In this document: positions 16,661 to 17,952 of the stretch, in pieces
How positions within the stretch are numbered: the first letter of the stretch is position 1
Layout: every line of letters begins with the position of its first letter
DNA from: an uncultured Chloroflexota bacterium
GTDB taxonomy: Bacteria; Chloroflexota; UBA11872; VXNJ01
DNA: 64,000 nt
Assembly (NCBI GenBank): GCA_964496475.1
Contig: CAZBZS010000001.1
Coordinates: forward strand, 36,512-100,511
Direction: 5' to 3'
Translations under genes and position numbers: made by a program
Notes under the pieces: model-generated
Told to the model about the DNA's origin: nothing
What the model saw: only the letters and a program-made list of their open reading frames with translations
The model's database searches: none

Positions 16661-17952
16661 CTACTGCAGGCAGATGATGGTGAGGCCGGCGCCGCTGTCG
16701 GCAACATAGGCGATCGCGTCGCGAACAAAAATTACGCGGGCGTCGCCCGGGGTTTCGATGACACGCAGCCGCACCGAGGCGTCAAAGAGGGTCAGATCGC
16801 CGCCCGAGACGACAGCCAGGCGGCCATCCCAGGTGACGTGGACGGCATCCTCGGTCGCGAACAGAGACATCACCAGTTCGGCGCGACCGAGGTCAATTAT
16901 GTTGATCGCGGACAGGCCCCCCCCCCCCCCCCCCCCCCCCCCCCCCCCCCCCCGACGCCCCCCCCGACCGCCCCCCCGCCCCCCCCCCCCCCGCGCGACA
17001 AGCAGTAGTGAGGCGGCCACCTCGAACTCAAAATCGAAATTTTCCGGCGCGCGCACACGCGAGATCAGTCCCAGGCCCGGCACTCGGAGTGATTAGATCA
17101 GCTCAGGGTTCACGTGGTTGGCAAGATCGTAAACCAGAATCCCGTAGCGCGGATTGCCAGACACCTGGCCGGAGATGTAGGCAAGGCCGTCGTTAAGGGT
17201 CACTTCAGCGAAGCCCAGGTCCTTGGACCGGGTGGAAAAATGCGGATGTCGTCCAGGTTGGACACACCCAAGACGATCATGTCAACGGCGCCACCCGAGA
17301 CCACTGCCAAGCCGTCATCGAGCGCGACGCCGCCGAATACATCGTTGCGGGTACCCGGAGGCACCAGCAGTTCACGAGGCTCCGCCGGGGTGGTCACGTC
17401 GAACGCTCGCAGGGCGTCGTCCGCTCCCACCTCCAGGACAAGAAGCAATTCGCTATCCGCCGCCACGTCGTCGGGCGAGCCGGGGATGGTGGTGAGCAGA
17501 ACCGGGTTCTCAAGTTCGGCGATGTCCACGATGTGCAGGCCCGCGCCCCGGGCCGATACGTACGCGATGTCGCCGACTACGGCGACGTTGGTCGAGGATC
17601 CATCCAGGGCAAGACTGGACATTATTCCCGGCGTCGGCGTCACCTTTACCGTCGGGGTCGGGGTGTGGTCGGGACGGGGTGTTCTGGTCGGTATTCAAGT
17701 TGGGGTGGATGTGGGCATTGGGGTCAGGGTGGAAAACACGGGCAGATCGGTCGTTGGATCCAGAATGGGATCACCGGTCTCGGGGTCAACCATTGGAGTA
17801 AGCACCGGCGCGGCGGCTTCCTCCAGCTCCTCCCCGCCGAGGAACAGGCAGCCCTGAACGGCTAGGGCAATTACCAATCCGAGCATCAATAACCGGGGTG
17901 TCAAGACGTTCGCACTCTGGTCAGCTAATGCAGGCATGCTATCGGCCCGCAA
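16661..17952 (-). pseudogene. LVIVD-repeat beta-propeller lipoprotein, fragmented into three ORFs and containing a poly-G(C) tract
   Basis: Three minus-strand ORFs in different frames, read in gene order. ORF 17695-17952 carries a signal/lipobox-like N-terminus MLGLVIALAVQGC and a PT-rich linker. ORF 17200-17643 carries LVIVD-like repeats (IAYVSARGAGLHIVDIA). ORF 16661-17083 carries a poly-Gly run encoded by the C-tract, then further LVIVD repeats (AYVADSGAGLTIICLQ). Frame breaks fall at about 17643-17695 and 17083-17200. Confidence 0.55.
16917..16992. repeat. Homopolymeric tract: C37, GACG, C7, GACCG, C7, G, C15
   Basis: Read directly from the sequence: a 37-nt uninterrupted C run at 16917-16953, then C7/C7/C15 runs separated by 1-5 nt. 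Lies inside the LVIVD gene, where the minus strand encodes poly-Gly. The G-rich strand has G-quadruplex potential. Confidence 0.9.

Follow-up and report, generated by a model that had tools for sequence, protein, structure and literature searches.

The 64,000-nucleotide (nt) stretch of DNA analysed here, which we call the window, comes from an uncultured Chloroflexota bacterium and carries on its minus strand, at positions 16661 to 17904, a disrupted gene for a lipoprotein with LVIVD repeats. By tblastn and DNA alignments this locus was identified as a single orthologue of an LVIVD lipoprotein of about 399 amino acids (aa). Its conceptual translation matched the Pfam LVIVD family (PF08309) with 39.2 bits, above the gathering score of 20.2, and in a database search its best orthologue was the 399-aa protein P0001 (E=9e-181, 76% identity), the other matches showing 50-77% identity. 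These results agree with an earlier note on this DNA, made from the sequence alone, which had proposed one broken minus-strand gene for an LVIVD lipoprotein. By database search and protein alignment, the identity of the orthologues to the conceptual translation was 76-82%, and they scored against PF08309 with 40.1 (P0001), 36.3 (P0037) and 58.8 bits (P0005); the C-terminal fragment of the window gene alone reached only 17.1 bits, which is less than the cut-off. The only NCBIfam matches were sub-threshold ones to choice-of-anchor B (TIGR04312), which at 13.5-21.6 bits fell below the cut-off of 100.

The gene starts with a TTG codon at 17904-17902, aligned with the start of P0001 and P0037, and ends with a TAG at 16663-16661. 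Two alternative in-frame starts lie upstream of this TTG, an ATG at 17937 and another TTG at 17952; the interval of 16661-17952 previously assigned to the gene was right at its end, its other limit being only that upstream TTG. The list of open reading frames (ORFs) cuts the gene into pieces of 85, 147, 36 and 140 aa. When P0037 was aligned to the window by tblastn, its residues 1-225 matched 17904-17236 in one frame and its residues 225-399 matched 17239-16664 in a second frame, and the same query revealed no paralogue of the gene in the 64-kb window. The order of a Gfo/Idh/MocA oxidoreductase gene (400 aa), the LVIVD gene and glyS, encoding GlyRS, is kept at every related locus covered on both sides. 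This conserved neighbour order, together with the collinear match to single orthologues, implies that the pieces belong to one gene and not to several.

The related loci come from records named as Chloroflexota metagenome-assembled genomes, and a scan of the GTDB representative genomes yielded five orthologous loci. An intact single ORF, which the earlier note had proposed to look for in relatives, is present at the loci L007, L017, L009 and L010 and in P0039; P0005 (410 aa) is full-length as judged by its protein sequence. The intact 399-aa proteins P0037 and P0039 fall in the 90%-identity cluster of P0002 and are encoded on contigs of 3.3 Mb and 1.0 Mb. P0037 (locus L017), the closest intact orthologue, with 84% nucleotide identity to the window gene, was taken as the intact reference. 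An intact homologue thus occupies the same genomic position as the disrupted copy, as is to be expected of a pseudogene. A further member of the same 90% cluster, P0032 (NCBI MFP8873104.1), is labelled Myxococcota, all other named relatives being Chloroflexota; it lies on a 2.2-kb contig, is probably a binning or taxonomy error, and shows an AYV tandem duplication near its C-terminus.

The lesions of the window copy were mapped against L017 and checked in a DNA alignment of five sequences. Translation of the minus strand from 18000 to 16600 revealed that the gene uses two frames, with two in-frame stops and one frame change. The first lesion is an in-frame TGA at codon 70 (17695-17697), where the orthologues have CGA, CGG or CGC (Arg); the first frame reads TSTPT*IPTRTPRPDHTPTPTVKVTPTPG across this codon and continues to about 17236. 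The second lesion, and the only frame change of the gene, is a 1-nt deletion at reference nt 673, in codon 225 (17236-17241). It consists of the loss of an A, ATTATTTCC in L017 corresponding to ATTTTTCC in the window, which implies that the T5 run found there is a product of the deletion and not a slippery tract that preceded it. The third lesion is an in-frame TAA at codon 273 (17093-17095) in the place of the CAA or CAG of the orthologues, the encoded Gln being invariant in six of them; the second frame crosses this TAA (NPELI*SLRVPG) and then a G-rich tract before reaching the terminal TAG.

The arrangement put forward earlier, of three frames split at about 17643-17695 and at about 17083-17200, both in repeat-prone sequence, is wrong. 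Only two frames are used according to tblastn and the three-frame translation; the former site corresponds to the in-frame TGA, with no frame change, and the latter to two lesions, the 1-nt deletion and the in-frame TAA. Apart from the C tract described below, the gene has no tandem repeat other than a weak 6-nt one at 17651-17673, which excludes the TGA, located 22 nt away; the 1-nt deletion does not lie in a repeat.

Further changes, some of them missed in the first reading of the locus, accompany these three lesions. A 15-nt in-frame deletion affects codons 357-362 (16771-16780, junction 16775/16776), the segment having been lost between GGTGC direct repeats that are visible in L011; its junction was also found in the contigs L001 and L002 and the scaffold L020. 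A 6-nt in-frame deletion, likewise absent from the earlier inventory, lies near 17641/17642, within the Pro/Thr-rich linker (17623-17847). At codons 306-310 the G-rich tract contributes 66 extra nt, and the window copy has substitutions at 7 of 75 positions that are invariant across six orthologues. Judging from these changes, the CGA to TGA substitution at codon 70 would end translation ahead of the propeller domain, the 1-nt deletion (codon 225) and the CAA to TAA change (codon 273) would disable the remainder; a functional product is not to be expected.

The population was traced via glyS to the run SRR5007147 of the project PRJNA352798, a depth profile of the Mediterranean water column that was sequenced on HiSeq-4000 with 150-bp paired-end reads. 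A MEGAHIT contig of this run (L005) is 99.99% identical to the window over 17023-25266, a Logan contig of the same run (L006) is 100% identical over 17049-20061, and the scaffold L020 (ERZ23491077, HARO18-2_SAMN05992386, scaffold_177, 120,448 nt), which was reached via P0042, a protein found by a search with the C-terminal part only, is 100% identical on both flanks. The sole mismatch to L005 in 8.2 kb, C/T at position 21053 of the window, presumably is a strain-level single-nucleotide polymorphism. L005, L006 and L020 each contain the TGA, the 1-nt deletion and the TAA, so that, with the assembly of the window, these ORF-disrupting lesions, a hallmark of a pseudogene, are the same in four assemblies. 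ORF fragments of 63 aa and 140 aa are common to L005, L006 and L020; the 36-aa fragment was called as a gene in L005 and L020, and the stretch is identical in L006, where the gene was left uncalled. GlyRS and the Gfo protein are full-length in the window and in the orthologous loci, and the window, with about 60 kb of sequence flanking the gene, is densely packed with long ORFs. Because the lesions recur in three other assemblies while the neighbouring genes are intact, they are real and not the accident of one assembler. The suggestion that the gene is decaying thus stands as far as the TGA, the 1-nt deletion and the TAA, all to the right of the tract, are concerned.

The G-rich tract is a different matter. 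It occupies 76 nt (16917-16992, minus strand; +66 nt) and reads C G14 C G7 C GGTC G8 C GTC G37, preceded by GTCGCG and followed by CCTGTCC. The C37 tract pointed out in the earlier note is indeed present as written, at 16917-16953, and with a C14 at 16979-16992 it makes up the only homopolymers of at least 9 nt in the 64 kb. The tract replaces a 12-nt GGN-GGN-GGN-CGN motif, GGY GGC GGY CGC in the orthologues; those that keep the region read GTC GCC GGY GGC GGY CGC CTR TC, that is V-A-G-G-G-R-L-S, and the most distant ones V-V-A-G-G-R-L-A. A G tract is absent from every orthologue compared that keeps the region, and the "poly-Gly segment" that had been counted among the native parts of the protein corresponds there to four residues, AGGR in P0005 and P0006 and GGGR otherwise.

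The assemblies of this population disagree over the 106 nt from 16917 to 17022. To the left, the MEGAHIT contig L001 includes 35 C of the run and stops at 16951, whereas L002, from Logan, stops at 16916; to the right, the contigs start at 17023 and 17049. In L020 (2940-2965) position 17023 is joined directly to 16916 with a one-G microhomology, leaving out the tract and 29 nt of native-like sequence; compared with the orthologues this version lacks 40 nt, and it has a frameshift of its own. The L020 junction may be either a real deletion allele or an assembler or polymerase artefact. The segment 16952-17022 of the window was found in no other assembly, and exact 20- and 21-nt scans of JGI metagenome contigs with the sequences flanking the tract gave no match. 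The sequence of 16917-17022 is not trustworthy as written, and the idea of a locally poor assembly, also raised earlier, is borne out for this interval only. Whether the tract is real or an artefact, the gene has already been inactivated upstream of it.

A second site in the same data is informative as to how such a disagreement may arise. L001 (3763-3791), which was assembled from SRR5007147, differs from the window (12961-12989) at five positions within 29 nt, all of them changed to G on the minus strand and located just downstream of GCCGGCGGCCGG; the window has a TAATG stop/start overlap here, of which the TAA is lost in L001. The cluster looks like systematic G-biased miscalls that entered an assembly, and its position after GCCGGCGGCCGG argues that miscalls following GGC-rich motifs do reach the assemblies of these reads. 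GGC motifs were described to trigger directional Illumina miscalls, coverage gaps and assembly branching (Nakamura et al. 2011, PMC3141275). At the tract site the orthologues have a GGC-rich motif, and there the four assemblies give four outcomes, a pattern that errors of this kind may have initiated.

With respect to the age of the inactivation, the ratio of nonsynonymous to synonymous substitution rates (dN/dS) of the window copy against L017 was 0.157, compared with 0.119 for the intact L007, 0.124 for L003 and 0.134 for the allele of L013, which carries an in-frame deletion; the flanking genes gave 0.04-0.08. These values indicate that most of the divergence accrued under purifying selection and that the inactivation is therefore recent.

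Orthologues of the LVIVD gene bear different, independent lesions in several lineages, whereas the flanking glyS and oxidoreductase genes, where a locus includes them, are full-length. A 168-nt in-frame deletion occurs in seven contigs, four of which were retrieved (L013-L016), each from another assembly, and L018 and L019 combine the 168-nt deletion with a TGA at codon 35. In L011 a 45-nt and a 1-nt deletion occur together with substitutions of conserved residues; in L008 a 4-nt insertion leads to a stop just after the lipobox, and the 3' end is truncated; the copy in L012 is about 430 nt shorter. Among the proteins, P0043 is a remnant of 162 aa that has undergone two large internal deletions, and P0040 also counts as damaged. 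The LVIVD copies of L003 and L004 have insertions of +2 and +1, respectively, in homopolymers. As neighbouring genes are split on the same two contigs, these frameshifts are suspect, and from the sequences they may be consensus errors rather than biology. The split genes are zinc-type alcohol dehydrogenase (ADH) genes on L003 and L004 (146+195 aa) and, also on L004, an AP_endonuc_2 gene (139+166 aa) and a further ADH gene (172+161 aa); they were located at L003 9547-10516 and at L004 1332-2194 and 7481-8481.

Since the lesions differ among lineages while intact copies persist, the gene looks dispensable and repeatedly eroded, which hints that the LVIVD lipoprotein is dispensable or disadvantageous in pelagic Chloroflexota. 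It might be thought that such independent losses were selected and not neutral erosion, for instance as an escape from a phage or grazer using the propeller as a receptor, and that in the population of the window a truly hypermutable G tract yielded deletion alleles; we regard this combination as rather improbable.

The architecture of the protein was deduced from the conceptual translation and from its orthologues, and the features at its N-terminus are those named in the earlier note. The conceptual translation reads ...LLMLGLVIALAVQGC at its N-terminus and continues with a Pro/Thr-rich linker. A signal peptide with a lipobox, M-TPRLLMLGLVIALAVQG-C, is predicted at 17848-17904, the Cys codon being 17850-17848; the lipobox was assigned by pattern only. 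The permissive PROSITE-type lipobox pattern comprises a positively charged N-region, a hydrophobic region and [LVI][ASTVIQ][GAS]-C. The segment TPR-LLMLGLVIALA-VQG-C fits this pattern, the Q at -2 being unusual. The lipobox segment is conserved, as TVQGC in P0001, P0002 and P0037 and as VLGC in P0005, and the Cys is present in every full-length orthologue.

The AlphaFold model of P0001 has a predicted local distance difference test (pLDDT) score of 77.9 and a predicted template modelling (pTM) score of 0.72. Residues 3-20 form a helix; the linker has a pLDDT below 50 at residues 60-90, which fits disorder; and residues 95-397 form an all-beta domain of about 28 strands with a pLDDT mostly of 80-97. 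Foldseek searches of the PDB with this model retrieved only 7- or 8-bladed propellers, generic ones of the WD40 type, and gave no functional clue. The propeller of tandem units of about 42 residues that characterizes the LVIVD family was thus recognised on the model of the orthologue P0001. From these models, the intact protein is predicted to have a signal peptide cleaved at the lipobox Cys, a Pro/Thr spacer of about 75 residues and a propeller of about seven blades with LVIVD repeats. The signs of a surface location are the N-terminal hydrophobic helix and the conserved Cys only; they suggest that the protein would be a lipid-anchored propeller displayed on a flexible Pro/Thr spacer outside the cytoplasmic membrane, where it might act as a binding module.

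Altogether, the locus is very probably a genuine, recently inactivated pseudogene of a membrane-anchored LVIVD propeller lipoprotein; the exact sequence of 16917-17022 is a separate point and is not established. Several observations weigh against this interpretation. The assemblies all derive from a single project, perhaps even from the same read set, so a shared systematic error is conceivable, and an intact allele could exist in the population alongside the window copy. The dN/dS is only slightly raised, for which reason the case for decay rests on the lesions themselves. With regard to the tract as an artefact, MEGAHIT independently carries 35 C directly adjoining unique sequence, which implies that reads with a long run flush to CCTGTCC must exist, and a simple fading of reads at their 3' ends leaves such a run unexplained. 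In addition, HiSeq-4000 uses four-colour chemistry, to which the dark-cycle poly-G artefact of two-colour (NextSeq-type) instruments does not apply, and this candidate was rejected for the present project; our search for literature on poly-G artefacts of HiSeq 4000 returned nothing usable. That all the lesions are sequencing or assembly errors and that the organism has an intact gene is nevertheless very unlikely. The evident unreliability of 16917-17022 and the common origin of the assemblies would favour such an explanation, but four assemblies, produced with different programs, agree on the TGA, the TAA and the 1-nt deletion, the contexts of these lesions are unremarkable, fairly AT-rich and not adjoining GGC motifs, the flanks of about 60 kb are densely packed with long ORFs, and seven otherwise invariant residues are substituted too.

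Whether the tract physically exists affects only part of this picture, as the gene would be a pseudogene in either case. It is possible, though we consider it less probable than an artefact, that the GGC-rich motif of the dead gene expanded to an unstable poly-G and that L020 represents its deletion product. Two assemblers, that of the window and MEGAHIT, put at least 35 G flush against CCTGTCC, one breakpoint of L020 coincides exactly with the 3' end of the G run and shows a 1-nt microhomology, and the insertion of 66 nt is a multiple of 3, although this is expected by chance in one of three cases. Breakpoints of the L020 type resemble deletions induced by G-quadruplexes. Moreover, reads fading to G over the native downstream sequence do not fit the non-G bases of the tract; as no constant offset brings these into register with that sequence, overwriting by a fade to G was rejected as the sole cause. 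Against a real expansion, the site never goes beyond GGN GGN GGN in the orthologues compared, the 64 kb hold no other homopolymer of at least 9 nt, the interval 16952-17022 was found in no other assembly, and G-biased miscalls after GGC motifs are demonstrable in these same reads. A contingency gene for a phase-variable surface protein, an option that the earlier note had also raised, switched by the length of the poly-G or of the linker repeat, is highly improbable. A homopolymer does lie within a surface-protein gene, and the assemblies do differ in length at the tract site, which sequencing error explains equally well. However, two nonsense substitutions and a 1-nt deletion outside repeats lie upstream of the tract; no change of repeat length would reverse C-to-T substitutions or the loss of an A, and the ORF cannot be restored by the length of the tract, which as written is already in frame. 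The orthologues lack the tract, and in other lineages the gene was damaged by point mutations and deletions rather than by altered repeat lengths. Poly-G contingency tracts of Campylobacter, Neisseria and Haemophilus are of about 8-15 nt and lie in otherwise intact ORFs. Finally, the chance that the pieces are independent small genes, or that the gene is expressed by programmed recoding (TGA read-through or selenocysteine plus a programmed frameshift), is negligible. The only point in its favour is that ORFs of 36 to 147 aa exist; the fragments are collinear with orthologues that are single 399-aa proteins, so that the independence of the segments, which the earlier note had named as one finding that would overturn its proposal, was not observed. 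Furthermore, the TGA replaces an Arg and the TAA an invariant Gln, and the region has no Rfam element. TGA is the commonest stop codon of the genome, and as it closes 20 of the 43 long open frames in the window, its use as a sense codon was rejected.

As to other features of the locus, two plus-strand ORFs overlie the gene, one at 17114-17857 and the other at 16574-17008; both lack Pfam matches, and they were rejected as genes and regarded as shadow ORFs. A search of 16000-18600 against Rfam gave no match, and a promoter scan at the locus found none. A candidate terminator-like hairpin with a T run (16656-16674, minus strand) overlaps the TAG stop; it comes from a consensus scan only, in which 2 sites were found against 1.2 expected in shuffled sequences, and it falls within the 121 nt that separate glyS from the LVIVD gene, the two being convergent. 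In some relatives, one to several zinc-type ADH genes lie between glyS and recO (L003 7481-10516, L007 3375-4385). These are absent from the window (recO at about 14329-15096, glyS at 15199-16539), from L013 and from L017, and constitute a small gene-content indel adjoining the locus.

For annotation, our results mean that 16661-17904 should be entered as one pseudogene and not as four hypothetical ORFs. As no two assemblies of this population agree on 16917-17022, the 37-nt homopolymer and the "poly-Gly" segment should not be read as biological features. The locus is also an example of what GGC-rich motifs can cause in metagenomes of high GC content, namely broken contigs, spurious joins and miscalls biased towards G.

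Compared with known systems, the protein shares with the LVIVD family (PF08309) a Pfam match above the gathering score, tandem units of about 42 aa, a predicted propeller and an N-terminal signal for secretion or anchoring. The LVIVD repeat, of 42 residues, was first defined on cell-surface proteins of archaea and bacteria (PMC2447325). The protein of this locus differs in its short architecture, in which a predicted lipobox and a Pro/Thr spacer precede one propeller, whereas the weaker matches P0007-P0009 (about 600-670 aa) combine LVIVD with further domains; no function has been demonstrated for any family member, and the window copy would be non-functional. With regard to the Illumina errors at GGC motifs (PMC3141275), the native site is likewise GGC-rich, the assemblies break or branch there, and a cluster of G miscalls is found elsewhere in the reads. 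Those errors were described, however, as substitutions and small phase lags and not as a 66-nt expansion with 37 G, so the mechanism alone does not account for the tract. The locus resembles poly-G contingency loci in having a G homopolymer inside the coding sequence of a surface protein, and departs from them in that lesions upstream of the tract already kill its ORF and that the tract itself is not conserved and not reproducible. With ordinary bacterial pseudogenes it has in common the intact orthologues in place, several independent disabling mutations, intact neighbours and a slight relaxation of constraint; it differs from them in nothing essential, and is notable only in that related lineages bear different lesions in the same gene.

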